From an uncultured bacterium (GTDB taxonomy: Bacteria > Hydrothermota > UBA3072): DNA of 31,651 nt. The stretch is from assembly GCA_964422805.1 (NCBI GenBank), contig CAYRCN010000001.1:1-31651 (forward strand). The letters run 5' to 3'. Shown one piece after another: positions 4,843 through 22,824 of the stretch. Each line of letters begins with the position of its first letter. The first letter of the stretch is position 1. The notes below the pieces were generated by a model. It was not told where the DNA came from. It was given only the letters and a program-made list of their open reading frames with translations, and did no database searches. The translations under genes were made by a program, and so were the position numbers.

Positions 4843-5964
4843 ATGAAAGAAATAAAAACTCCTTTATACAGCAAACACCTCGAATTAAGTGCCTCTATGG
4901 TAAGCTTTGCCGATTACAGAATGCCGATGCAATATTCCTCTATATTTAATGAAGCAAAAGCCGTACGAAATTCTGCGGGTTTATTTGATGTGTCACATAT
5001 GGGAGAAATCGAGGTTACAGGGAGTGATGCAACAGAATTTATCAACAGCCTTGTAACATATGATATATCTTCGCTCAAGGACTTTCAGGCAAAATATACC
5101 GTGATGTTAAATGAAAAAGGGGGAATAATAGATGACATCCTGGTGTATAATCTTCCGGGGAGGTATTTTATAGTAGTTAATGCGTCAAACCGGGAAAAAG
5201 ATTTTAACTGGATCAGCGGGCACAAAAGCGGTAATGTAGAGGTACAAGATGTTAGCAAAGAAATTTTCCAGATTGCGTTACAGGGGCCGTTATCAGAAAA
5301 AATTATAAAGAGAGTCGTAAAATCCAGTCCTTCAGATTTAGAGTTTTACCATGCTAAAGAAGAAAAAATAGAGAATGGAAAAGTTTTACTTTCAAGAACA
5401 GGATATACGGGCGAGGATGGTTTCGAAATTTACGGAGAAAGCAGTGAAGCAGAAAAAATATGGGATAGAATCATGAAAGAGGGGAATCCATATGGCCTTT
5501 CTCCCTGTGGTTTAGGTGCGAGGGATTTACTTAGGCTGGAAATGGGATACTGCCTATACGGTAACGATATAACAGCGGAGACGACTCCTCTGGAAGCGAG
5601 CCTCTCTTGGGTTGTCTCTTTAGATAAGGAAAATTTTATAGGTAAAGAGGTTTTATTGAAACAAAAAAAAGAAGGAATAAAAAGGAAACTTGTTGGGATT
5701 TTGGTACCGGGCAAAAGAATTCCCAGGCATGGCTATAAAATATTGACAAAAGGAGAAAAGATCGGCACAATTACGAGCGGTAATTACTCCCCGAACGTTG
5801 GCTCTTCCATTGCAATGGGTTATATAAGTAAGCCGTATGATAAAGAGGGAACAAAGGTAGAAATTGAAATAAGGAATACGTTTACAGAGGGAGAAACTAT
5901 TAAGCTTCCGTTCTGGAAACGCGGAACAATCAAGAAGAAGAGTGTCGAAAAGAAAGACGACTGA
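4843..5964 (+). CDS. gcvT: Glycine cleavage system aminomethyltransferase T
   Basis: 373 aa; GLFDVSHMGEI, SRTGYTGEDGFEI, GLGARDLLRLEMG. Confidence 0.96.
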   Translation: MKEIKTPLYSKHLELSASMVSFADYRMPMQYSSIFNEAKAVRNSAGLFDVSHMGEIEVTGSDATEFINSLVTYDISSLKDFQAKYTVMLNEKGGIIDDILVYNLPGRYFIVVNASNREKDFNWISGHKSGNVEVQDVSKEIFQIALQGPLSEKIIKRVVKSSPSDLEFYHAKEEKIENGKVLLSRTGYTGEDGFEIYGESSEAEKIWDRIMKEGNPYGLSPCGLGARDLLRLEMGYCLYGNDITAETTPLEASLSWVVSLDKENFIGKEVLLKQKKEGIKRKLVGILVPGKRIPRHGYKILTKGEKIGTITSGNYSPNVGSSIAMGYISKPYDKEGTKVEIEIRNTFTEGETIKLPFWKRGTIKKKSVEKKDD

Positions 5965-5996
5965 ATTTATAAATCAAATATAAATATGGAGGGGAA

Positions 5997-6386
5997 ATGG
6001 AAATAAAAATACCGAAAGATCTTTTGTATACTGAAGATCACGAGTGGGCAAGAAAAGAAAACGGTGAAATTACCGAAGGCATAACGGATTTTGCGCAATC
6101 TGAACTTCAGGATATCGTCTTTATAGAATTGCCGGAAGTAGGTCAAGAAGTAGTCCAGGGAGATTCGATTGCTACAATTGAAGCCGTAAAAACGGTAACC
6201 GATCTTTACGCAGCTGTTTCCGGAGAAATTGTTAAGGTTAACAAAGAGCTGGAAAAGAAGCCGGAATTAATAAATAAGGATCCCTATGATACTGGTTGGA
6301 TAGTAAAAATAAAAGTATCTGACCCAGCCGAATTAGAAACCTTGCTTGCGCCTTCCGAATATAAAAAAGTAATTCAAGAAGAGTGA
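5997..6386 (+). CDS. gcvH: Glycine cleavage system H protein
   Basis: 129 aa; YTEDHEW, GITDFAQSELQDIVFIELP, lipoyl-Lys motif IEAVKTV, INKDPYDTGWI. Confidence 0.96.
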   Translation: MEIKIPKDLLYTEDHEWARKENGEITEGITDFAQSELQDIVFIELPEVGQEVVQGDSIATIEAVKTVTDLYAAVSGEIVKVNKELEKKPELINKDPYDTGWIVKIKVSDPAELETLLAPSEYKKVIQEE

Positions 6387-7702
6387 ATTTTATTCCAGTA
6401 AATAGAAATCAGCAGAAAGAAATGCTCAAAACCATAGGTAAGGGCATAGCTGATTTACTTTCAGCAATCCCTGAAGATTTACATTTAAAAAGACCCTTGA
6501 ATCTTCCTGCTCCGCTTTCCGAAATGGAAATAAAGGAGGAATCGCTTAAAACGGCCAAACTCAACAATGATTTAATAGTTTTTGCCGGCGGGGGAGTTTA
6601 TGATCACTATGTTCCGTCAGCTATAAGGCATCTTACCGGGAGAGCCGAGTTCTTTACCGCTTACACTCCTTATCAACCGGAGGTCTCTCAGGGTACTCTC
6701 CAGGCGATCTACGAATATCAATCGATGATTTGTGAATTAACAGGAATGGAAGTTTCAAACGCTTCTATTTACGACGGGGCAACAGCTCTCGCGGAAGCTA
6801 TATTTATGGCACTTGCAATAAACTCCGACAGAAACAAAGTAGTTGTCTCAGAAGGAATTAATCCTTATTACCTCGAAGTTATAAAAACATATCTAGGTGA
6901 AAATTATTTATTTGAAACTCTATCTCTAAAAGATGGTATTACAGATACGGAAGAGTTAGGGAAGATTGACGAGGGGACTGCTTGTATATCGATACAACAT
7001 CCTAATTTCCTGGGGAATTTTGAGGAAGTTGAAGAATTCGTAAAAGCAGCCCAAAATCTTGGTGTTATTGTAATATTAAATTTTGACCCGATATCTCTTG
7101 GGATACTAAAGACACCAGGGGAATATAGGGTAGATATTGCGACAGCAGAAGGACAGAGTCTGGGTATCCATATGAACCTTGGAGGGCCTTATCTCGGTAT
7201 ACTAACCTCGATGAAAAAACATATAAGAAATATGCCTGGAAGGATAGCCGGGAAGACAATAGACAAGAAAGGGAAAGAAGGTTATGTAATGGTTCTGCAG
7301 ACTCGCGAGCAACACATAAGAAGAGAAAAAGCTACGTCGAATATCTGTACAAACCAGCAACTTTGTGCCCTTTCGGCCGCAATATACCTTGCCCTGCACG
7401 GATGGGAAGGAATAAGAGAAACAGCAAACATAATAACTCAGAAAGCTCATTACCTCGCAGAAAAAATACAAAAGGCGGGGCTTGAACTTCCATATAAACA
7501 AAAATTTTTTAGAGAGTTTGTTGTTGAAATCCCAACGGGAGCAGAAAAAGCAATCAAAAAAGGAGTCAAAAACGGATACCTTGCAGGTATTAACCTTGGA
7601 AAATTCAAAAAAGAGTGGCAGAAACACCTTCTTGTTTCCGTAACGGAAAAAAGAACCAAAGGCGAGATGGACGAGCTCGTAAAAATTCTTTCGTCAAATT
7701 AA
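6383..7702 (+). CDS. gcvPA: Glycine dehydrogenase subunit 1 (alpha)
   Basis: 439 aa; TAYTPYQPEVSQGTLQAIYEYQS, NASIYDGATA, TREQHIRREKATSNICTNQ; GTG start overlaps the gcvH stop. Confidence 0.94.
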   Translation: MNFIPVNRNQQKEMLKTIGKGIADLLSAIPEDLHLKRPLNLPAPLSEMEIKEESLKTAKLNNDLIVFAGGGVYDHYVPSAIRHLTGRAEFFTAYTPYQPEVSQGTLQAIYEYQSMICELTGMEVSNASIYDGATALAEAIFMALAINSDRNKVVVSEGINPYYLEVIKTYLGENYLFETLSLKDGITDTEELGKIDEGTACISIQHPNFLGNFEEVEEFVKAAQNLGVIVILNFDPISLGILKTPGEYRVDIATAEGQSLGIHMNLGGPYLGILTSMKKHIRNMPGRIAGKTIDKKGKEGYVMVLQTREQHIRREKATSNICTNQQLCALSAAIYLALHGWEGIRETANIITQKAHYLAEKIQKAGLELPYKQKFFREFVVEIPTGAEKAIKKGVKNGYLAGINLGKFKKEWQKHLLVSVTEKRTKGEMDELVKILSSN

Positions 7703-8242: not shown

Positions 8243-9301
8243 ATGTTTCGCAAGAAAAAATTTATAATTTTATCTTCGTCCATTGTGTTGGTTATATTTC
8301 TTTTGTTCGCTTTCAGCCGCGGGAATGGAAAAAATGAGCAAAATCCTGCTGTAAAAGTAACAAAAGGAAATATCAGGGATGTGGCGGTAGCGCTCGGCAC
8401 TATTGAGGTTAAGTATGAGACGAGCGTGAAATCTACTTTTTCGGGAGTAATAAAAAAAGTGTTTGTCGAAATCGGAGATGTGGTGAAGAAAGGCGATCCT
8501 ATTTTTGAAATAGACCCTGCCCCCACTCCCTTTGAGCTCGCTTCCGTTAGAAAAGAAGTCAAGGTGGGGGAAGTTCGGCTGGAAAACGCGAAAAAGGACA
8601 TCGAGAGGAAAAAGGCTCTTTTCGAAAAAGGTTTGATATCGGATAAGGAATACGAGAATATGCAGCAAGAACTCCAGGAAGAGCAGTCAATTTATGATCT
8701 GGCAAAACAGAGGTTGGATTTAATGGAAAAAGGTAAGGCGAGAGTCGGAGGGACTGCTCTCGACGCTATAATTCGTTCCCCCGTATCCGGAACAATTCTT
8801 TCGAGAGAAGTCAGTATCGGGGATCCCGTCGTGCCGCTTACTTCTTATCAGCCGGGTACAGAACTTATGAGAATTGCAAGACTCCAAGATCTATTATTTA
8901 AAGGAGTTGTTGATGAAATCGATGTCGGAAGACTGGAAGAGGGAATGAAGGCAAAGATAACAGTAGGTGCTATCCCTGATGAAGAAGTTTATGGGATAAT
9001 AGATATTATCGCTCCAAAAGCCCGGAATAAGGAAGGAGCAACAGTCTTTGATCTTGAGATAATAGTTACTGAAAAGGGGAACAAGCCCCTGCGGGTTGGG
9101 TATTCTGCAACCGCTGATATTATTATAGATGAACGAACAGATGTACTTGTAATTCCTGAGGGTGCGGTAAAATTTGAAGAGGGAAAAACATTTGTTTATC
9201 TTGCAAACGGGGAAAAGAGAGAAGTCGAAATCGGATTATCTGACGGATTAAATATAGAAGTTGTTACCGGATTAAAAGAAGGAGATGAAATTAAAAGATG
9301 A
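8243..9301 (+). CDS. Efflux periplasmic adaptor (MacA/HlyD-family membrane fusion protein)
   Basis: 352 aa; N-terminal TM, lipoyl half-motifs (VEIGDVVKKGDPIFEI; IRSPVSGTILSREVSIGD), helical hairpin; AAGGAGG SD. Confidence 0.92.
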   Translation: MFRKKKFIILSSSIVLVIFLLFAFSRGNGKNEQNPAVKVTKGNIRDVAVALGTIEVKYETSVKSTFSGVIKKVFVEIGDVVKKGDPIFEIDPAPTPFELASVRKEVKVGEVRLENAKKDIERKKALFEKGLISDKEYENMQQELQEEQSIYDLAKQRLDLMEKGKARVGGTALDAIIRSPVSGTILSREVSIGDPVVPLTSYQPGTELMRIARLQDLLFKGVVDEIDVGRLEEGMKAKITVGAIPDEEVYGIIDIIAPKARNKEGATVFDLEIIVTEKGNKPLRVGYSATADIIIDERTDVLVIPEGAVKFEEGKTFVYLANGEKREVEIGLSDGLNIEVVTGLKEGDEIKR

Positions 9302-10533
9302 GAAGGGTAATAACTCAATTGGTTCAGGATTTTAGAGCCTACAAGATGAGGTTCCTGCTGGTAATATTCGGCGTCTCATGGGGAACTACCGCCATTATTC
9401 TTAACATGGCTTTCGGGGTCGGAGTCATGCATCAGGTAAAAAAAGGCCTGAGGGGACTGGGAGAACATATAGGAATACTCTGGCCCGGACAAACAAGTAT
9501 CCCATATAAGGGCCTCGGTATAGGCAGAAATATTAGATTTGTTCCGGAAGATGCGGAACTCTTAAAAGAAAGAATTGATGTCATTGAACTAGCCTCTCCA
9601 GAGTATATTCACTGGGGACAGCCGATAAAGTACGGAGAACTGCTCCGACAGGCAAAAGTCTGCGGAGTAAATCCTTCATATGGAATAATGAGGTCTATAG
9701 AAGCCGGGAAAGGGAGATTTCTTAATAAGCTGGATATTGAAAAGAGAAGAAGAGTTATTTTTCTGGGAAACGAAGAAAAAGAAAAAATATTCGGGCAAGA
9801 AGACGCTGTTGGCAAAAGAGTCCTTTTAAACGGCATCCCTTTTACGGTTATCGGCGTAATGAAGAAAAAAATACAGACAAATTCTTACTCCGGAAGCGAT
9901 CAGAATACAGTCTTTATTCCCTACTCGACATTTAAAACAATGTACGGCTGGCTGTACATAAATAATATGGTATATAAACCCATCTCTGCAGGTCTGTCAA
10001 AAGAAGCACAGAAAGAGATTAGCAGGGTTCTTGGAGAAAAATACAAATTCGACCCGGAAGATAAAGAAGCTCTCGGAACATGGGATGTGGCAGAGCAAGA
10101 ACAATTAATGAATAAAATGACCAAGGGGATTGAATTTTTTCTATCTATGGTTGGCGCTATGACTTTGCTTATTGCCGGAGCGGCTATTGCAAATATTATG
10201 TATTTCATAGTGGATGAGAGAACGAGAGAAATAGGAATTAAACGCTCCGTAGGAGCAAAAAAAAGCGATATCCTTCATCAATTCCTCCTGGAATCACTCT
10301 TACTTTCAACAATCGGCGGAATATCCGGACTTCTTTTTAGTTTTTCGATCGTATGGCTCTGCTCTTTTATACCTGAAACGGGCATATTTGAGTTCATGGG
10401 TAAGCCTACCATGTCCTACGAGATACCCATAATAACGGTTATCGTTCTTCTTGTCATTTCGCTTTTCTCTGGATATTTCCCCGCAAAGAAAGCGGCAAAC
10501 CTAAAACCAGTGGAGTGTTTGCGCTATGAGTAA
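9298..10533 (+). CDS. ABC transporter permease (MacB/FtsX type)
   Basis: 411 aa; TM1, periplasmic MacB-PCD region, GIANIMY-like segment and ERTREIGIKRSVGAKK, C-terminal PAKKAANLKPVECLRYE. Confidence 0.92.
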   Translation: MRRVITQLVQDFRAYKMRFLLVIFGVSWGTTAIILNMAFGVGVMHQVKKGLRGLGEHIGILWPGQTSIPYKGLGIGRNIRFVPEDAELLKERIDVIELASPEYIHWGQPIKYGELLRQAKVCGVNPSYGIMRSIEAGKGRFLNKLDIEKRRRVIFLGNEEKEKIFGQEDAVGKRVLLNGIPFTVIGVMKKKIQTNSYSGSDQNTVFIPYSTFKTMYGWLYINNMVYKPISAGLSKEAQKEISRVLGEKYKFDPEDKEALGTWDVAEQEQLMNKMTKGIEFFLSMVGAMTLLIAGAAIANIMYFIVDERTREIGIKRSVGAKKSDILHQFLLESLLLSTIGGISGLLFSFSIVWLCSFIPETGIFEFMGKPTMSYEIPIITVIVLLVISLFSGYFPAKKAANLKPVECLRYE

Positions 10534-11203
10534 GTTACTAATTGAAGCAAAAAATATAAGAAAAGAATACAAAATGGGAGAAGAAAAAGTAGAAGCCATC
10601 AAGAGTATGTCTCTTAAGGTTAAGGAGGGGGAATTTATTTCCATTATAGGACCTTCCGGTTCGGGCAAATCAACTTTACTGCATATTTTGGGGTGTCTTG
10701 ATCTACCTACCAGCGGTGAATATCTGTATAGAGGTAAGGAAATATCGACTTATTCCGACGACCAGCTTTCCGCATTCAGAAACAGAGAGATAGGGTTCGT
10801 GTTCCAGTTTTTTTATTTGCTGCCCCGCGAGAACGTTCTTGAGAATGTCAAGTTACCTTTAATCTATCGTGATACGCCCGAAGAGGATAAGAATGAAATG
10901 GCTATGAAAGCTCTGAGGAAGGTTGGTATGGACAAAAGGAAGAATCATCTTCCGACTGAACTTTCAGGAGGCGAGCGCCAGAGAGTTGCTATCGCAAGGG
11001 CGCTGGTTGGCGACCCGAATCTCATTCTTGCCGACGAACCGACGGGCAACCTGGACACAAAAACGGGAGAATCCATCATATCAATTTTTGAAGAGCTATA
11101 TAAAACCGGAAAAACAATTATAATGATAACCCATGAGAAAGAACTTGCGGAGAAAGCAGAAAAAATAGTCAAAATAAGGGACGGCGAGATCGAAGGAGGT
11201 TGA
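10526..11203 (+). CDS. ABC transporter ATP-binding protein (MacB/LolD family)
   Basis: 225 aa; Walker A GPSGSGKS, signature LSGGERQRV, ADEPTGNLD, H-loop ITHE. Confidence 0.95.
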   Translation: MSKLLIEAKNIRKEYKMGEEKVEAIKSMSLKVKEGEFISIIGPSGSGKSTLLHILGCLDLPTSGEYLYRGKEISTYSDDQLSAFRNREIGFVFQFFYLLPRENVLENVKLPLIYRDTPEEDKNEMAMKALRKVGMDKRKNHLPTELSGGERQRVAIARALVGDPNLILADEPTGNLDTKTGESIISIFEELYKTGKTIIMITHEKELAEKAEKIVKIRDGEIEGG

Positions 11204-11204
11204 T

Positions 11205-12434
11205 GTGATTTTTCTATTGTTGCTGGCATTTAATTTAACATTAGAAGATGCGATAGCAATGGGATTGAAAGAAAGCCCGATATATCTAAAAGCCAAAAAA
11301 AGCTTTATAATTGAGCAAAAAACGAATTCATTCGTCTACTCCGAACTCTTACCTGAGATAAACGGAAGTTACAGCTGGATTAAAACCCAAAGCGAAACCG
11401 AGGGAGTAACTTTTTTTGACACAACCAGCGGATACAGTCTTTCTGCCAGCTGGGAGCTGGGTCCCGGAGAATTATTTAATTCTTTCGGTACTCATTACAG
11501 AAACAGTTCAGCTTATTATTCCTTTGTTGAGGTTCAAAATAGCGTAATATACGATATTGCTTTTCAATATCTCAAAACATTGATGATGCAGAAATTACTT
11601 GAAAGCAGAAAGGCGGGAGTGGAGAGAACAGAAAAGAATTTAAACTTGATAGAAGAGAAGAAAGCGCTTGGTCTGGCTTCGAACGCTGAAGTTCTAAAAG
11701 CGAAGGTCGATTACTTCCAATCGAAGATAAATCTACTTGAAACGAAAAAACAGGCGAGGGTTTCCGCCTTGATGCTAAACAATATTTTAGGCTTAACAGC
11801 AAGGGATTCGCTGGAGCTTGAAGAACCTCAGGTTGAATTTGAAATTCCCTCAAAAGACTCGATTCAATTCATGGCAATGGGAACTGACCCTCTATATAAT
11901 AAATATAAGTCGGAATACAGTGCCGCAAAATACGATCTATTAGGAGGTGCAACGGAGGATCTCTTTTCTGTTTCGATCTTCACGGATTTCCAGCATGCAG
12001 GAGAAGAATTCCCAAGTTCCTCTGTTTTAAGGGATAATTATGATTACTCGATTGGATTATCTATAACTGTACCAATATTTACCGGTTTTTCGAGATTTAA
12101 CAAATACACAATCAACAGACTGAAAAAGGATTTAGCAGATATAAATTTGCGGGATAGAGAGAGAGAACTTACCGTTGCGGTAGAAGATGAATATTTAAGC
12201 TATCGAGAAACAGTAGAAAAACTTGATCTTGCCGAAGCAACTCTTGAATTCGCCCGCGAAAGTCATGATGCCACCAACGAGAGATACACCCTTGGAGAAG
12301 CCTCAGTGATAGAATTTCTGGAAGCAGAAGAAGATTTGCTTGAAGCAGAGTACTCAATGACACAGGCCCGGTTCGACTGGTATTTATCCGTGTATAAGAT
12401 TAAAAGATTAACAGGAATATTAACAAAAGAATAA
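11205..12434 (+). CDS. TolC-family outer membrane efflux protein
   Basis: 409 aa; LTLEDAI start of the OEP fold, repeated helical halves, ERYTLGEASVIEFLEAE; GTG start with AAGGAGGT SD. Confidence 0.88.
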   Translation: MIFLLLLAFNLTLEDAIAMGLKESPIYLKAKKSFIIEQKTNSFVYSELLPEINGSYSWIKTQSETEGVTFFDTTSGYSLSASWELGPGELFNSFGTHYRNSSAYYSFVEVQNSVIYDIAFQYLKTLMMQKLLESRKAGVERTEKNLNLIEEKKALGLASNAEVLKAKVDYFQSKINLLETKKQARVSALMLNNILGLTARDSLELEEPQVEFEIPSKDSIQFMAMGTDPLYNKYKSEYSAAKYDLLGGATEDLFSVSIFTDFQHAGEEFPSSSVLRDNYDYSIGLSITVPIFTGFSRFNKYTINRLKKDLADINLRDRERELTVAVEDEYLSYRETVEKLDLAEATLEFARESHDATNERYTLGEASVIEFLEAEEDLLEAEYSMTQARFDWYLSVYKIKRLTGILTKE

Positions 12435-12452: not shown

Positions 12453-13391
12453 ATGAAAACAGGATTAAAAAAAGAGCCTCTTATGTTTCTAGCTCTACTG
12501 CTTGCTGCGGCTCCCTTAAGTGTAAAATGCTGTCACAGATATGAAATGGAGTTTAGAAAAACTTACGAAGTAAAACCAGGAACCAAAATCACGGTATCCA
12601 ACAGTAACGGAAAAATCGAGATAGAGAAATGGGATAGAAAAGAGGTGGAAGTTTTTGCCTCTATTGGCTCAGATAAAAGTATGGAAGAATTAACTAAAGC
12701 TAAAATCGAGGTTTCCTTAGACGAAAACATGGAAATCGCGACGATTTATTCGGGGGAAGACAAAAAAGAATCGAAGAAAAAGGAGAAAGACTTTGGCGTC
12801 TGGGATTTTATCAAATGTTTAGTGAAGGGCGAATATTCGGGAAATAAAATTAACGTAGACTACGAAATCAAGGTCCCGGATTATGTTGTTGTTTCTGAGG
12901 TGAGAACTTCAAATGGGGGAATAGATTTACAGGGAACAAAAGGACCTTCAGAGTTGATCACAACTAATGGTAAAATTGAAGTTGAAAACGTCGAGGGTGA
13001 CATAGAAGCAAAAAGCACTAATGGGAAAATAAAAATTGAGAACGTAAATGGTTTCGTGTCAGGGAGAACAACAAACGGCAAAATTGAAGTAAAAAGCGAA
13101 GGAATAAAAGATTTGACAACAACAAACGGTGGCATTGAAGCGGAAATGAAGAGTATAAAAGAAAACATCAAAATCAGAACAACAAACGGCTCAATCAAAC
13201 TCGGCTTGCCTTCTTCTCTTAATGCAATTCTGGAATTAAGCACCACTAATGGCGGAATAGATTTAAACGACATTACCCTGGAGGTTACCTCAAAGCATAA
13301 GAATAAATACATTAAAGGCAAGATGGGGAAAGGCGGACCGGAAATAAATGCGAGCACCACAAACGGAGGAATAAAATTAAGAAAATTGTAA
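12453..13391 (+). CDS. DUF4097-family beta-strand repeat (adhesin-like) exported protein
   Basis: 312 aa; N-terminal signal; 7-8 (S/T)TNG(K/G/S)I repeats; ends INASTTNGGIKLRKL. Confidence 0.8.
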   Translation: MKTGLKKEPLMFLALLLAAAPLSVKCCHRYEMEFRKTYEVKPGTKITVSNSNGKIEIEKWDRKEVEVFASIGSDKSMEELTKAKIEVSLDENMEIATIYSGEDKKESKKKEKDFGVWDFIKCLVKGEYSGNKINVDYEIKVPDYVVVSEVRTSNGGIDLQGTKGPSELITTNGKIEVENVEGDIEAKSTNGKIKIENVNGFVSGRTTNGKIEVKSEGIKDLTTTNGGIEAEMKSIKENIKIRTTNGSIKLGLPSSLNAILELSTTNGGIDLNDITLEVTSKHKNKYIKGKMGKGGPEINASTTNGGIKLRKL

Positions 13392-13598: not shown

Positions 13599-15872
13599 TT
13601 GAAAGATTCCATTGTGGTTAAGTGTAAGAGTTTATTTTTTGCAAAGCTTTCCCGGTTAAGAATTTTCGTTTTGTCCATGATGTTTGCTGCCTGGTTTGTA
13701 TCTGCTTCTAACGGGGAAGCCTCGAATGACGAGAAAATTCCTTGCAGGGTTCCCAGGGTCAATTCGGAAGTAAGTGTAGACGGTTATCTTGACGAAGAAG
13801 TATGGGATCAGGCAGTTAAAATTGATGCGAATGTCGAGGTTAGTCCCGGAGAGAATATTCCCGCTCCTGTCAAAACCGAAGTATATATTGCTTACGACAA
13901 CTCCAATATATATGTTGCGTTCAAAGCCCATGACCCTGACCCCTCGCAAATCAGAGCTAATTTATGTGATAGGGATAATATTTGGGATGATGACTGGGTT
14001 CTTATTCTGTTCGATACCTTCAACGACGAGAGTAGATGCTATGATTTTGGGTGCAATCCGCTGGGGATTCAGGCAGATATAATTGAAAGCACCTCGGGCG
14101 GAGGAGGTTCTTGGGATGCTATCTGGGAATCTGATGGGCGCATTACTGAAGAAGGGTATATAGTTGAGATGGCTATACCGTTCAGTTCTTTAAAATTTCC
14201 CCGCAAAGAAGGTGATCAGATATGGGGCTTTGATGCGGTGAGAAGCTATCCCCGAAACGTACGACATCATATAGGCGCATTTCCAAGAGACAGAAATAAC
14301 AATTGTTATTTCTGCCAATTGGAAAAAATGACGGGTTTTAACGATGTAATACCGGGAAGAGACATTGAACTTGTTCCTACGTTTACTTCCCTTGTTAAGC
14401 AAGAAAGAGAAAATTGGTCTTCGGGACCATTTGGTACGGAAGATTTCTATGGAATTGGCCTCACTTCGAGCTGGGGGCTCACTACCAATCTTAAGCTGAG
14501 CGCAACAATTAATCCCGATTTCTCGACCATTGAATCTGACGTAATACAAGTAGATATAAATAATCCGTTCGAACTATGGTATCCTGAAAAACGTCCGTTT
14601 TTTCTCGAAGGAGACGATTTTTTTGAAACAAGTATCGATGCAGTCCATACAAGAATTTTAGCCGATCCAAATGTTGGAGTCAAATTGATCGGGAAAGAAG
14701 GTAAAAACACGATAGGTTTTTTTTCTGCTCAGGATGCTGTAACAAACTTAGTTATCCCCTCTCTTGAAGGGTCTACTTCTGATACCATAGAGGGGAAATC
14801 TTATGGTACGGTTATTAGATACCTGCGGGACTTCGGGCAGTCATCGAATATAGGCTTACTAATAACCGACAGAGAAGGAGGGAATTATTACAATCGGATT
14901 CTGGGGCTTGATGGCATCTTACGTATCACAAAAAGTGATCACATTAGATGGCAAGTACTTGGTTCAAGGACCTTATATCCGGATGATGTTGCATCGCAAC
15001 ACGAGCAATCTACCGGTGCATTCGGAGGAAATGGCGTTTCTGGATATTATTCTCATGATAACAAAAGTTATAATTTCTTCGGAATATATGAACAAATGAG
15101 TCCGGATTTCCGCGCAGATCTTGGTTTCGAAAATCAAACGGGGTACAGATATGGCGAAGTGGGAGGAAATTACATATGGAGAGCGGGACCGGAGCACTGG
15201 TTTACATGGATAAATATTTACCTTGGCGCAGATTTGGGAAAAGATTACAGCGGCAACACAGCGCGTAAAGAACTAAAAGCCAATGTTAACTACAACGGTC
15301 CTCTTCAGTCTTACTGTGGTGTTTATGGGCAGCTCTCAAAAGACCGCTATGAGGAACAAGAATTTAAAACAAGTTATTTGAATTATTGGATTGGGGGACA
15401 ACCTGCGAAATGGTGCAGTTTCAACTTATGGAGTGTATTCGGCGACAGAATAGATTATGACAATACTCGTCCAGGGAAAGGGTTGCAGCTGGGCGTCAGC
15501 ACGACTTTTAAAATCGGATCTCGCTTGTCGGTCAGCCTCGACCATTATTATGAACATTTAGATGTAAACGAAGGGAGGCTTTACACTGCCAACAGGGAAT
15601 ATATAAAATTAATGTATCATTTCAATGAGAGAATCTTTATACGAACGATTTTTCAATTTGCCGACTATAATAAAGACCCCGACCTTTACATCGATTATGT
15701 AGAACAAGAAGAACAGGAACTTCTAAGCCAGATTCTTCTTTCATATAAAATTAATCCGCATACCGCCTTATATTTAGGATATACAGATAATTATTACGGA
15801 GATTACGATACAGATATAATACAAACCGATAGAAGTCTTTTCGCAAAGATCGGCTACGCTTGGATGTTTTAG
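13599..15872 (+). CDS. CBM9/DOMON-like sugar-binding domain plus DUF5916 outer-membrane beta-barrel protein
   Basis: 757 aa; VDGYLDEEVW, TEVYIAYD..IYVAF, NPDFSTIESD, LWYPEKRPFFLEG; amphipathic C-terminal strands ending KIGYAWMF; TTG start with AGGAGG. Family recognised by eye. Confidence 0.72.
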   Translation: MKDSIVVKCKSLFFAKLSRLRIFVLSMMFAAWFVSASNGEASNDEKIPCRVPRVNSEVSVDGYLDEEVWDQAVKIDANVEVSPGENIPAPVKTEVYIAYDNSNIYVAFKAHDPDPSQIRANLCDRDNIWDDDWVLILFDTFNDESRCYDFGCNPLGIQADIIESTSGGGGSWDAIWESDGRITEEGYIVEMAIPFSSLKFPRKEGDQIWGFDAVRSYPRNVRHHIGAFPRDRNNNCYFCQLEKMTGFNDVIPGRDIELVPTFTSLVKQERENWSSGPFGTEDFYGIGLTSSWGLTTNLKLSATINPDFSTIESDVIQVDINNPFELWYPEKRPFFLEGDDFFETSIDAVHTRILADPNVGVKLIGKEGKNTIGFFSAQDAVTNLVIPSLEGSTSDTIEGKSYGTVIRYLRDFGQSSNIGLLITDREGGNYYNRILGLDGILRITKSDHIRWQVLGSRTLYPDDVASQHEQSTGAFGGNGVSGYYSHDNKSYNFFGIYEQMSPDFRADLGFENQTGYRYGEVGGNYIWRAGPEHWFTWINIYLGADLGKDYSGNTARKELKANVNYNGPLQSYCGVYGQLSKDRYEEQEFKTSYLNYWIGGQPAKWCSFNLWSVFGDRIDYDNTRPGKGLQLGVSTTFKIGSRLSVSLDHYYEHLDVNEGRLYTANREYIKLMYHFNERIFIRTIFQFADYNKDPDLYIDYVEQEEQELLSQILLSYKINPHTALYLGYTDNYYGDYDTDIIQTDRSLFAKIGYAWMF

Positions 15873-15889: not shown

Positions 15890-16267
15890 ACGGGTTTAAC
15901 AAAAGCCGAATGGCAAATTATGAATGCTTTATGGAAAAATTACCCGGCATCTGTCAGGGATGTAATCGGGCATCTTGATGGAGATGTGGATTGGGCATAT
16001 ACGACAGTCAAGACAATGCTGGACAGGTTGGTTATAAAGGGAATACTTAAAGTGAACAAAAACCGTAACGTGAGCATCTACGAACCAATCGTTTCTCAGG
16101 AAAAAACGCGTCAGGCAGCTATAAAATCTTTTGTCAACCAGGCTTTCGACGGGGCAATAGGCACTTTAATGCATTATATCGTTGCCGAAGAAGAGCTATC
16201 AAAAAAAGAAAGAGAAGAATTGGTACGTATTCTAAAAGAGGAAGAAAAAAATGATCGAACAAATTAA
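15890..16267 (+). CDS. blaI: BlaI/MecI/CopY family repressor (probable start ACG 15890; first ATG 15920)
   Basis: LTKAEWQIMNALW, WAYTTVKTMLDRLVIKG, FVNQAFDGAIGTLMHY..EELS. The conserved N-terminal helix lies upstream of the first ATG. Confidence 0.88.
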   Translation, partial: TGLTKAEWQIMNALWKNYPASVRDVIGHLDGDVDWAYTTVKTMLDRLVIKGILKVNKNRNVSIYEPIVSQEKTRQAAIKSFVNQAFDGAIGTLMHYIVAEEELSKKEREELVRILKEEEKNDRTN

Positions 16268-19585: not shown

Positions 19586-20029
19586 TTGGGAAAAGATAAA
19601 GAAGAAAAAAAAAGCAATAAGGATATAGAGAAATTAAAAGACGATATCTCTCTTGAGGAAGCGGAGCCTAAAAGGAAGAGACTTCTGCAAGTATTAGTAT
19701 TATTCTTGACAGGTGGAATTATAATAACTTTAGGAATCTACTTGAGGTGGGACAAACGGATAATTGGTATAGGGGTTTTTCTTTTTGGTCTTGTATCTCA
19801 AGGCTGGTCGAGTCTGGTTTCTCTTTTGGGAGGAGTTCCTGTTGTTGGGAGTATTATTGTAAGATTCCTGGCTCTTCCTTTACTTTTCCTTGTTAATGGT
19901 ATTGGGAATCTTTTAGCTTTTATAGCGATTAAAATGGGTTATAAGAAAGAAATAATGGATACAAAGTTGCTTGCCTGGACTTTTGCGGGCGGGCTTTTAA
20001 TAGGATTCATAATAGGAGGATTAATATGA
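19586..20029 (+). CDS. Hypothetical membrane protein (3-4 TM)
   Basis: 147 aa; charged N-terminus followed by hydrophobic helices; TTG start; its TGA overlaps the next ATG. Confidence 0.7.
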   Translation: MGKDKEEKKSNKDIEKLKDDISLEEAEPKRKRLLQVLVLFLTGGIIITLGIYLRWDKRIIGIGVFLFGLVSQGWSSLVSLLGGVPVVGSIIVRFLALPLLFLVNGIGNLLAFIAIKMGYKKEIMDTKLLAWTFAGGLLIGFIIGGLI

Positions 20030-22824
20030 TTTTGTTGCTTTTCCTAACATCTCAATATCTCTTTGAGCAAAACAAAATTCAATACACTTCGCATGAATGG
20101 ATGATGCATAAAACAGAACATTTTCACATATATTACTATAAGAGTGAGAAAGTTTTAGTACCTTTTGCGGCAGATGTTTTAGAAGAAAGTTATAATAGAC
20201 TGAGAAAGAGATTTAATTATAAAGAGAGAAAAAACGAGGATGCGATCCCTGTAATACTGTACAAATCTCATCCGGACTTTCAGGGAACTAACGTAATTCT
20301 TGATAGAATACCTGAGGGCGTGGGAGGTTTCGCAGAGCTTTTCAAGAATCGTATCGTGATTCCCTTTAACGGTTCTTACTCTGACTTCAGGCATGTTCTC
20401 AACCATGAGTTAGTGCACATTTTCCAATACCGTATTCTTTACGGTACAGGAGTAAACGCTATTAAAAGGGCAATAACTTCCAGTATTCCTCTCTGGTTTA
20501 TTGAAGGTATGGCAGAATTGGAATCGCTGGGATGGGATCAGAGTGCCGAAACATATATAAGAGACGCTGTTTTAAATAATAAGCTCTTTACTATACCTCA
20601 ATTGAGTAGAATTGGCGGATATCCTATATATAAAGAAGGGCAATCGGTTCTATACTATATAAGAGAGAAATATGGCGATGAAAAAATAGGTGAAATAATG
20701 AGTAAACTTAAAATCACTAATTCTTTTGAAGGAGCTATTGTTAGCGTTCTGGGTATAGATATGGATCGTTTGAACTCTGAATGGACTAAAGAATTAAAGA
20801 AAGAGTATTGGCCAATTATTGAAGGGAAACAGTATATAAGTGAAATAGCAAGGCCTATTGTAACACATAGTGGTTTTGAGGATCTTTATAACTATGCTCC
20901 CGCTGTATCTCCCTCGGGTGATAAAATAGTATATTTTACAGATGAAGTGGGTGAAGTTCAAATCAGGCTTGTTTCTTCTCTAACTAAAGAAGATTTAGGA
21001 TTACTGGTCAAAGGCGGGCGTTCTGCCATGTATGAGTCTTTACATCTGATGGAGGGACACGTTAGCTTTTCACCCGATGGAGAAAGAATTATTTTTCCTG
21101 CTATGGTAAAGGGTAAAGACGTGCTTTATATTTTTGATATAAGAGAAAGAAGGATATTGAAAAAAATCGATTTGCAATTAGACCTGATAAGATGGCCCGA
21201 ATTCTCTCCCGACGGTACAAGAATCGCATTTGTTGGTTTAAAAAATGGGGCTTCCGATATTTACGTGTACGACCTTCAAAGCGGAACCCTTGTAAATGTA
21301 ACACATGACAGATATTCAGATAATTATCCAGCCTGGAAAGGAGATTCTTTGTTTTTCGTGAGTGACAGACCGGAGACAGAACAATGGGATTATAACACAA
21401 ACATGTTATACCTGACCGATTTAAAAGGAAATATAAAAAAGTACCTCTCATTTGGCAAACAGATTATAGCTCCTAAAGTTTATAATTCTGACGTTTACTT
21501 TATTTCTTACAGAGACGGAGGTAAAAATTTGTATGTATATAAATCCGATTCGTCGGTCGTGAAACAACTTACGGATCTTATCGGGTCAGTAGACGACTTT
21601 TCGATCTCGAATGCCGGACATATAGCTGTATCTATATATTCGGATCTCGGCTGGGATATATATTTTATTGATTCTGTAGAAGAGCTGACAGAAAAAGAAC
21701 CAAATCCTCCCAGGGAATTAAAAAAAGAAGAAGAAATTCCTGTAATTCTTGCGGAAGAAGATAAAATGAAAAAAGACAGCAGAGCTCCTTTGCATTTCGG
21801 AGTTGACTACTTTACAGGAACTCTTGGCTATTATTCAGATTACGGTGTTTATGGATATTTGGCATTAGGGATGAGTGATATGCTTGGGAATCATCAGGTT
21901 TACGCCTTATTCAATAATACAGATCTTACCGAGAGTAGTTTCTACATTATGTATTTATATCTGAAGCGGAGAGTCGACCTTGCTGCATCTTTGGTAAGAC
22001 AGAAAGGTGTTTTTTCAGTAAGCGAAGGTTACCTGGCCGGAGATATTTGGAACTTAAACACAGATGTTATATTTCCTATTGATAGGTTCAAAAGAATCGA
22101 AATGGGTTTAGGTTCTTACTATCTTGCAGGGAATTTACTTGTACCGCTTGAAGGTTATCCTGGCTGGTATGTGGAAACACGCTCGGACCTACCAGGGTTT
22201 GGTTTACTGGGAAACATATCTCTGATTCAAGATAATAGCACCTGGGGTTATATGAATCCTGTAAAAGGGTTCAGGGGCAGAATTTCTTACAGTAGACCGC
22301 TTCTTGCAGGTGAGAATCTTTGGGATATTAGTACTGTCTCGACCGATCTTAGAAAGTACTTTTATTTAAGCAGTGACTATAGCTTTGCCTTACGTTTTTT
22401 GATAATACACAGTTGGGGTAGAGATAGCTGGGATTTCGGAACTGTTGGAATCGGGGGAGGGCGTTCGGTTAGAGGATACGATTATAATACTCAAATCGGG
22501 AGCACCGCGGGCCTATTAAGTCTGGAATTGAGAATGCCTTTGATAAAGAGGTTGGATCTTGGGTTTCCTCCTATATCGTTGGGAGGTATTGAAGGAGCAC
22601 TCTTCACTGATATAGGAGTAGCGACTGATGATTACAAGGCATTACGAATCTTGACCACTGAAAATAATTGGATAAAGCTCGCCGATCCTATTATGTCATT
22701 TGGTGTGGAGTTCAGGCTCAACCTTGGAATAACGATTTTAAACTTTGATATCTCGAGAAGGACCGATTTAAACACGATCTTACCGGACTTCCATTACGAC
22801 CTTCACTTAGGGTTGCCGTTTTAG
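20026..22824 (+). CDS. Peptidase-MA-like domain + TolB/PD40 beta-propeller + Omp85/BamA-type barrel (WD40-Omp85 type)
   Basis: 932 aa; HELVH (20404-20418) with WFIEGMAE; repeats PAVSPSG, VSFSPDG, PEFSPDG; loop-6 VRGY (22468-22479); terminal LGLPF. Confidence 0.82.
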   Translation: MILLLFLTSQYLFEQNKIQYTSHEWMMHKTEHFHIYYYKSEKVLVPFAADVLEESYNRLRKRFNYKERKNEDAIPVILYKSHPDFQGTNVILDRIPEGVGGFAELFKNRIVIPFNGSYSDFRHVLNHELVHIFQYRILYGTGVNAIKRAITSSIPLWFIEGMAELESLGWDQSAETYIRDAVLNNKLFTIPQLSRIGGYPIYKEGQSVLYYIREKYGDEKIGEIMSKLKITNSFEGAIVSVLGIDMDRLNSEWTKELKKEYWPIIEGKQYISEIARPIVTHSGFEDLYNYAPAVSPSGDKIVYFTDEVGEVQIRLVSSLTKEDLGLLVKGGRSAMYESLHLMEGHVSFSPDGERIIFPAMVKGKDVLYIFDIRERRILKKIDLQLDLIRWPEFSPDGTRIAFVGLKNGASDIYVYDLQSGTLVNVTHDRYSDNYPAWKGDSLFFVSDRPETEQWDYNTNMLYLTDLKGNIKKYLSFGKQIIAPKVYNSDVYFISYRDGGKNLYVYKSDSSVVKQLTDLIGSVDDFSISNAGHIAVSIYSDLGWDIYFIDSVEELTEKEPNPPRELKKEEEIPVILAEEDKMKKDSRAPLHFGVDYFTGTLGYYSDYGVYGYLALGMSDMLGNHQVYALFNNTDLTESSFYIMYLYLKRRVDLAASLVRQKGVFSVSEGYLAGDIWNLNTDVIFPIDRFKRIEMGLGSYYLAGNLLVPLEGYPGWYVETRSDLPGFGLLGNISLIQDNSTWGYMNPVKGFRGRISYSRPLLAGENLWDISTVSTDLRKYFYLSSDYSFALRFLIIHSWGRDSWDFGTVGIGGGRSVRGYDYNTQIGSTAGLLSLELRMPLIKRLDLGFPPISLGGIEGALFTDIGVATDDYKALRILTTENNWIKLADPIMSFGVEFRLNLGITILNFDISRRTDLNTILPDFHYDLHLGLPF

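Follow-up and report, generated by a model that had tools for sequence, protein, structure and literature searches.

A conserved nine-residue, uncharged leader before the TolC fold in candidate division WOR-3, a putative minimal export signal

The window analyzed here is a 31,651-nucleotide stretch of DNA from an uncultured bacterium of the Hydrothermota (contig CAYRCN010000001.1, assembly GCA_964422805.1), and its subject is an open reading frame (ORF) on the forward strand at 11205..12434, which encodes a TolC-family protein of 409 amino acids with the N-terminus MIFLLLLAFNLTLEDAI. We found that this protein carries about nine uncharged hydrophobic residues before the TolC fold, and this N-terminus was confirmed as genuine and no artefact. 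Judged from sequence conservation, these nine residues probably, if by no means securely, act as a minimal export signal for the Sec/signal recognition particle (SRP) pathway. The window has a G+C content of ~39%, its nearest relatives are metagenome-assembled genomes (MAGs) labelled candidate division WOR-3, and the window sequence itself is present in salt-marsh metagenomes.

The N-terminus of the TolC protein and its setting

The features that define the start of the TolC gene are these:

11175..11177, + strand: in-frame TAA, 10 codons upstream of the start, limiting any N-terminal extension of the TolC ORF
11193..11200, + strand: Shine-Dalgarno AAGGAGGT, with 5 nucleotides between GGAGG and the start codon; GGAGG or GGGG occupies the corresponding position in 22 related loci
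11201..11208, + strand: junction TGATGTGA, where the ATPase TGA and the TolC GTG overlap with a start-stop pair (ATG-TGA) in another frame, read as translational coupling
11205..11231, + strand: nine-codon leader M-I-F-L-L-L-L-A-F, hydrophobic, with no Lys, Arg, Asp or Glu and no Pro or Gly, supported by position-by-position conservation
11205..12434, + strand: TolC-family outer-membrane factor, 409 amino acids, from Pfam OEP, PDB profile matches to CmeC and TolC, and a fold match at a template modeling (TM) score of 0.70-0.76
11232..11255, + strand: NLTLEDAI, start of the OEP/TolC fold, in which E14-D15 are the first charged residues of the protein and L13 and A16 are invariant

The first-pass annotation had placed MIFLLLLAF directly before NLTLEDAI, noted a strong Shine-Dalgarno ahead of the GTG and an in-frame TAA 10 codons upstream, separated from the GTG by no ATG, GTG or TTG codon, and concluded that no longer signal is encoded. 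Translation from the GTG at 11205 gives this N-terminus, the Shine-Dalgarno and the TAA are where they were described, no start codon lies in frame between the TAA and the GTG, and the conclusion is upheld by the start, Shine-Dalgarno and near upstream stop kept in 22 genome loci of WOR-3, TA06 and Stahlbacteria. Translation starts at the same position in these loci, with GTG in 20 and TTG in 3, behind a GGAGG or GGGG, and the nearest in-frame upstream stop is 3 to 21 codons away in most of them, often without an alternative start. Close stops were found at -5 codons (locus L002), -3 codons (L021, L022 and L026) and -1 codon (L027), and three more divergent loci have upstream in-frame stops at -9, -3 and -1 codons.

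There is next to no chance that a frameshift, an assembly error or a non-canonical upstream start conceals a longer signal. Gene callers did give longer N-termini for a few homologues (e.g., MEKSKEVDV...), and Arg and Lys would be encoded in the stretch that separates the TAA from the GTG, but the seemingly conserved upstream "KEV" is the Shine-Dalgarno AAGGAGGT read in frame. Positions 11000-11400 are covered by contigs of four independent salt-marsh metagenome runs, which show single-base differences only and no indels, so the frameshift that would have undone the first-pass reading is not there; with 22 concordant loci, these assemblies led us to reject frameshift or assembly error. An upstream start, canonical or non-canonical, was likewise rejected, since the reading frame is closed by stops at -1 to -10 codons, no start codon intervenes, and the same start is shared across loci.

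A protein search returned 69 relatives, ~60 of them 407 to 413 amino acids long, at identities down to 48%, and every full-length relative starts with the same kind of N-terminus. Of 56 distinct N-termini, 41 have Ile at position 2, 52 have Leu at position 6 and 46 have Asn at position 10; position 8 holds Ala or Ser in 44 and Phe in 9, while at positions 3, 4, 5 and 9 one hydrophobic residue freely replaces another. Lys, Arg, Asp and Glu are absent from positions 2-9 of every full-length homologue; a small number of charged letters in the conservation table apparently stem from one mis-anchored fragment. The mean Kyte-Doolittle value of residues 2-9 is 3.3 over the 56 N-termini. As the hydrophobic character is kept while the residues vary, the feature is not due to chance, and selection acts on the leader peptide. 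Directly after the leader, N10-L11-T12 (11232-11240) reads as an N-x-T/S sequon (Asn in 46/56, Thr or Ser in 54/55); TolC relatives with classical signals usually have P/K/E-L-T-L at this position.

The protein matches Pfam OEP (PF02321) with E=2.4e-41 in two stretches, the OEP repeats, and its PDB profile matches are CmeC (the best, E=1.7e-12), TolC and OprM. An AlphaFold2 model built on 32 homologues has a predicted local distance difference test score (pLDDT) of 83.9, with residues 1-8 as the sole segment below 50. In the modeled fold, a short strand at residues 9-11 pairs with a strand at 203-205, the first helix begins at residue 13, and there are strands at 51-65, 68-85, 255-265 and 281-288 and helices at 87-154 and 294-362; Foldseek matched it to OprN, TolC, OprM and CmeC (E about 1e-19). 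Because order in the model begins at residue 9, at most eight to nine residues lie outside the fold. OEP repeats, a protomer fold with an equatorial domain, long helical hairpins and four strands contributing to a trimeric barrel of 12, and association with adaptor and transporter genes are all present, and the model indicates that the protein is a complete TolC-type outer-membrane factor with a predicted location as an outer-membrane trimer.

The resemblance to Escherichia coli TolC and MacAB-TolC (Foldseek TM 0.72-0.76 to 1ek9, 5ng5 and 9tg4) extends to the OEP repeats, a four-strand share of the barrel per protomer and long helical hairpins; as in E. coli TolC, there is no N-terminal Cys, which makes the protein one of the non-lipoprotein type, and as in MacAB-TolC, the operon partners are an HlyD/MacA adaptor, a MacB_PCD+FtsX permease and an ABC ATPase. 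The differences are a sequence identity of only ~15%, the placing of ATPase and permease on separate genes in the window, and the mere 8-9 uncharged residues before the fold, whereas E. coli TolC is made with a classical Lys-containing signal peptide of ~22 residues. Lipoprotein factors of the OprM/NodT/CmeC type belong to the same fold family, CmeC being the best PDB profile match, but carry a lipoprotein signal and lipobox Cys, whereas the window protein has neither Cys nor linker: its position 13 aligns with residue 46 of the CmeC chain, and ~40 residues link the acylated N-terminus of CmeC-type proteins to their first helix.

Positions 8243-12434 form a tightly packed operon in which the adaptor and inner-membrane transporter genes stand directly upstream of the TolC gene, with the same partners in related loci. 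The other members of the operon and two genes used as comparators are these:

8243..9301, + strand: HlyD/MacA-type periplasmic adaptor with a classical Lys-rich N-terminal anchor (MFRKKKF...)
9298..10533, + strand: MacB-type permease (MacB_PCD + FtsX), from domain matches
10526..11203, + strand: ABC ATPase (ABC_tran), its stop 1 nucleotide before the TolC start
12453..13391, + strand: DUF4097 protein, a comparator with a classical Lys-containing signal, MKTGLKKEPLMF...
13599..15872, + strand: CBM9/DUF5916 putative outer-membrane protein, a comparator with a long Lys/Arg-rich signal, MKDSIVVKCKSLFFAKLSRLR..., and the C-terminus ...GYAWMF

The TGA of the ATPase gene occupies 11201-11203 and the TolC GTG 11205-11207, and the translation level of TolC may be set at this overlapping junction. 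Elsewhere in the window, the pump operon is preceded by glycine-cleavage genes T, H and P (first subunit) at 4843-7702, and a BlaI/Penicillinase_R-type repressor follows the CBM9/DUF5916 gene (15920-16267).

Graded leaders in TolC relatives and short leaders in an Omp85 fusion

A profile of the TolC family was searched against 1.84 billion representative proteins, and the best 150 matches were re-aligned locally. Most of these have 20-40 residues with 1-6 Lys or Arg before the L-T-L motif, counted to the position equivalent to Asn10, and about two dozen of the closest have at most 17 residues and no Lys or Arg. The short leaders form a graded series of 17, 14, 11 and 8-9 residues (e.g., MISAAVTVILANLAVVQ, MTLLLTICLLSQPL, MSALFLGLLTL and MVLIFFSI), which looks like the stepwise trimming of a normal signal. 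Short-leader relatives that carry names are labelled WOR-3 or Hydrothermae; one short-leader locus is labelled TA06 and one Stahlbacteria.

There are two TolC paralogues per genome with the same leader, one after the ABC ATPase and the other after a Yip1 polytopic membrane protein, whose stop it overlaps, and before HlyD, MacB and ABC genes. Both paralogue groups keep GATGTGAT and the rare GTG start despite these different upstream genes. An operon-first TolC homologue (L026, 5955-6003) has TTGACC, a 17-nucleotide spacer and TATAAT ending 5 nucleotides before its ATG; it has no Shine-Dalgarno and resembles a leaderless mRNA.

A leader of the same kind was found in a second gene of the window:

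20026..22824, + strand: protein of 932 amino acids joining a peptidase-MA domain (Peptidase_MA_2), a PD40 propeller and a C-terminal Omp85 barrel, from domain matches
20026..20052, + strand: second mini leader, M-I-L-L-L-F-L-T-S, with a conserved Gln right after it, at the protein start MILLLFLTSQYLFEQNK

The gene is preceded by AGGAGG at 20014-20019, and its ATG overlaps an upstream stop (ATGA) that belongs to a small membrane-protein ORF; a start further upstream is not possible. Leader lengths across 117 homologues of this Omp85 fusion are bimodal: 76 have at most 17 residues before the F-G-x-N-K motif (74 without Lys or Arg, 2 with), and 41 have at least 20 (2 without, 39 with). Among the named homologues the short group is WOR-3, and the long group includes KSB1, Zixibacteria and Glassbacteria. 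WOR-3 members have 9-13 residues free of Lys and Arg before the conserved Gln, and the closed WOR-3 genome CP070834.1 encodes an Omp85 fusion with a 10-residue leader of this composition in a gene that stands by itself behind a divergent one. In the classical orthologues a Gln comes right after the predicted cleavage site (...A/QYFGKNK, the slash marking the site), and this Gln keeps its position in the short orthologues (...TS/QY...); the Omp85-fusion stub is therefore argued to be homologous to a cleaved signal peptide. By sequence, this leader is an independent parallel to the TolC mini leader in an unrelated family.

The Q-rule, a Gln at +1 after signal peptidase I cleavage, has been described for Bacteroidetes and not for the whole Fibrobacteres-Chlorobi-Bacteroidetes (FCB) group (PMC5837995). 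A likeness to it is seen in the Gln right after the leaders of the Omp85 fusion and several short TolC proteins (MILLLFLTS/Q, MTLLLTICLLS/Q and MIFLLLCL/Q), although the TolC protein of the window has Asn after its leader. Gln directly after a predicted cleavage site is frequent in these loci, also behind many classical signals (SLQA/QESG, PLSA/QDT, ISQA/QSLN and AFG/QDF among the examples), as at L009 14463, L011 10129 and L028 15230 and 20355 and in many homologues.

The leader as a probable export signal and the alternatives

We scored the leader against known types of signal. A hydrophobic core is present (IFLLLLAF), with a peak hydrophobicity like that of classical cores in the same loci. 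A basic n-region is not: residues 1-13 hold no Lys or Arg, and neither do the leaders of full-length homologues. No polar c-region lies between core and fold, where the candidate -3 and -1 positions are the mostly Leu position 6 and the Ala/Ser or Phe position 8. There is no Cys in the first 60 residues to form a lipobox, and the first Arg does not come before residue 98, unlike in a twin-arginine (Tat) signal. The leader thus shares with classical Sec signals an N-terminal core of ~8 Leu, Ile or Phe, a similar peak hydrophobicity and acidic residues thereafter, and differs from them in its length of 8-9 residues and in lacking a basic n-region and a distinct c-region. On these sequence grounds it would be a variant of a Sec signal, not a standard one: n-region and usual length are missing, and the c-region is ambiguous. 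In E. coli work of the early 1990s, a core of ~8-10 Leu was reportedly able to drive export, and a basic n-region was helpful, not essential. Engineered poly-Leu minimal signals of that kind were laboratory constructs that still had a c-region and cleavage site, whereas the reduced form in the window is natural and conserved across a phylum.

Since the protein is a complete TolC-type channel encoded in a MacAB-like operon, it must cross the inner membrane, and the eight-residue Leu/Ile/Phe block is all that its N-terminus offers for this. Conservation of composition, not of sequence, is the pattern of an h-region, and the leader would be what is left of an ancestral classical Sec signal peptide, its h-region, after the basic n-region and most of the polar c-region disappeared. 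The Leu/Ile/Phe block, leaving the ribosome first, would be recognized by SRP and/or SecA-SecYEG, the former being the route taken by very hydrophobic signals (PMC5963308), and would insert at the lateral gate in hairpin form. On the cytoplasmic side the only positive charge would be that of the free alpha-amino group, with the conserved E14-D15 giving an N-to-C charge asymmetry; the rest of TolC would then be threaded into the periplasm, assembled in the outer membrane and serve the MacA/MacB-type ABC pump. Targeting signals in the mature domain, as Sec substrates also bear (PMC5412566), may add to export. Whether signal peptidase I cuts after residue 8 is uncertain; the residues at hand (Ala or Ser at 8, Leu at 6) would permit it in ~80% of homologues, and the stub may remain in the ~16% with Phe8. 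The predicted N-terminus is MIFLLLLAFNLTLEDAIAMGLK if uncleaved and FNLTLEDAIAMGLK if cut after residue 8.

Several observations weigh against this minimal-signal reading. Of the three parts that textbooks assign to a signal peptide, the leader fails on two, and its 8-9 residues compare with a median of 22 and a minimum of 15-16 in E. coli K-12 (PMC5963308). Its hydrophobicity is not exceptional, the peak 8-residue Kyte-Doolittle value being 3.3 for mini leaders versus 3.5 for classical signals in the same genomes, and the idea that extra hydrophobicity offsets the missing n-region is unsupported by this comparison. With Phe as the putative -1 residue in ~16% of homologues, cleavage is not uniformly possible. 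The length is fixed at nine across ~50% divergence, more constancy than signal peptides usually show and a hint of a further constraint. Finally, a search for an RNA run that could serve as transcript evidence found none.

The rival that survives best, unlikely but deserving of weight, is that the stub is not the main targeting element: signals in the mature domain, of the documented kind cited above, would be recognized by SecA or a permissive, prl-like SecY, and the uncleaved stub would serve another purpose in the mature protein, e.g., packing at the equatorial domain against a neighboring protomer, the adaptor or the cell wall. The strict length of nine, the preference for Ile at position 2 and Leu at position 6, and the cleavage site that is not uniformly conserved speak for it, as does a third WOR-3 family (described below) whose near-invariant LILVEED after Met is more sequence-specific than a typical signal. 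On the other hand, AlphaFold2 puts residues 1-8 outside the fold at very low confidence, positions 3, 4, 5 and 9 are free among hydrophobic residues, and the continuous series from classical signal to stub, together with the fixed Gln of the Omp85 fusion, argues for homology to cleaved signals. The N-terminus would also sit at the equatorial domain, ~50 angstroms below the outer membrane as estimated from modeled helix lengths; eight residues cannot reach the bilayer from there, so an uncleaved stub is too short to be a membrane anchor.

There is a slim chance that a full signal is dispensable through translational coupling to upstream genes for inner-membrane proteins, which would leave mRNA and ribosome already at the translocon. 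The TolC start 1 nucleotide past the ATPase stop, in an operon with HlyD-type and MacB-type membrane proteins, fits this idea, as do the overlaps of the second TolC paralogue with the polytopic Yip1 gene and of the Omp85-fusion ATG with the stop of the small membrane-protein ORF. However, the operon-first TolC homologue has a 13-residue leader free of Lys and Arg with an in-frame stop 3 codons upstream, and the Omp85 fusion of CP070834.1 has its 10-residue leader with no gene to be coupled to; these counter-examples weaken coupling as a general cause. The DUF4097 gene, on the same strand and 18 nucleotides downstream of TolC, keeps a classical signal all the same.

A still smaller chance falls to a protein that is not exported, from a decaying gene or with a new cytoplasmic role. 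The leader is indeed no recognizable signal by textbook standards, but the full-length family is kept at 48-93% identity with 52 invariant columns, the model has all parts of a TolC protomer, the four barrel strands and the long helices included, the position next to adaptor, permease and ATPase genes is conserved, and each genome has two paralogues.

Distribution of short leaders in WOR-3 and their significance

The first-pass annotation had proposed that the lineage as a whole uses ultra-short targeting signals. Short leaders are indeed conserved in the TolC and Omp85-fusion families, but ordinary signals with Lys or Arg prevail elsewhere, beginning with the HlyD, DUF4097 and CBM9/DUF5916 proteins of the window itself. 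We surveyed 30 WOR-3 loci (474 kb, 398 ORFs) and, as controls, 74 loci from other lineages with a classical Omp85-fusion gene (990 kb, 694 ORFs), using conservative ORF calls (longest form, known upstream stop required) and counting as Lys/Arg-free only leaders that start within the first four residues. With the TolC and Omp85-fusion families set aside, 4 ORFs of the WOR-3 loci were free of Lys and Arg versus 62 with them (~6% of signal-like N-termini), a count of 4 that leaves out three TolC orthologues mis-binned as "other"; the control loci gave 4-6 versus 97 (~4%). With the two rates so close, lineage-wide signal shortening was rejected.

By family, 5 outer-membrane-like WOR-3 families lacked Lys and Arg and 3 had an n-region with them, versus 1 and 18 among other exported or anchored families (Fisher's exact p=0.004, on small numbers, with loci chosen via two of the five positive families, TolC and Omp85 fusion, and a crude criterion for outer-membrane-like, namely a C-terminal aromatic motif or TolC/Omp85 membership). 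The mini leader is family-specific, and these sequence data are no more than suggestive of a bias to outer-membrane proteins. A third family found only in WOR-3 (L022, 15626-16648; 340 amino acids, no Pfam match, seven homologues) has a nine-residue stub and a nearly invariant N-terminus, MILxxLILV-EEDIF; its AlphaFold2 model (pLDDT 49) is an all-beta meander compatible with a barrel, and its C-terminal aromatic residue is not conserved. A search of the literature on WOR-3 signal peptides or unusually short signals found nothing relevant.

Two further observations were made in these loci. In a closed WOR-3 genome, a 94-amino-acid ORF (L028, 20355-20639) starts with MLWCVFFVFAFG/QDF, a 12-residue leader free of Lys and Arg with an A-x-G cleavage motif. 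A GH3 glycosidase and an M1 peptidase (L011, 10129-12567; L028, 15230-17236) carry Por_Secre_tail and classical signals, and cargo of this kind suggests that a type IX secretion system exists in the lineage.

As a tentative extension, doubtful but worth stating, WOR-3 (including Hydrothermae, Stahlbacteria and some TA06 MAGs) might possess a natural class of mini signals of 8-13 residues without an n-region, preferred for outer-membrane proteins. Its members could conceivably be the two TolC paralogues, the Omp85-barrel fusion and perhaps other barrel-like proteins, with classical signals persisting, on the same tentative footing, for lipoproteins, periplasmic proteins and type IX cargo. If this were true, these substrates would have a recognition route of their own, e.g., a permissive translocon or SRP targeting that is obligately co-translational, their processing would be atypical or absent, and standard predictors would systematically miss the outer-membrane proteins of the WOR-3 phylum.

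If the leaders of the TolC and Omp85-fusion families do work as signals, the shortest E. coli signal peptide is about twice as long as they are; they lack the textbook basic n-region and would set a natural lower bound on what Sec/SRP must recognize, while the series of classical, 17-, 13- and 9-residue forms would be an evolved set in which to find the dispensable parts of a signal. Should the stub instead be uncleaved and structural, it would be a new feature of TolC-type channels. Signal predictors and localization pipelines would probably call such TolC and Omp85-type proteins cytoplasmic, and this mis-scoring would distort reconstructions of the envelope and secretome of WOR-3 and related uncultured phyla.

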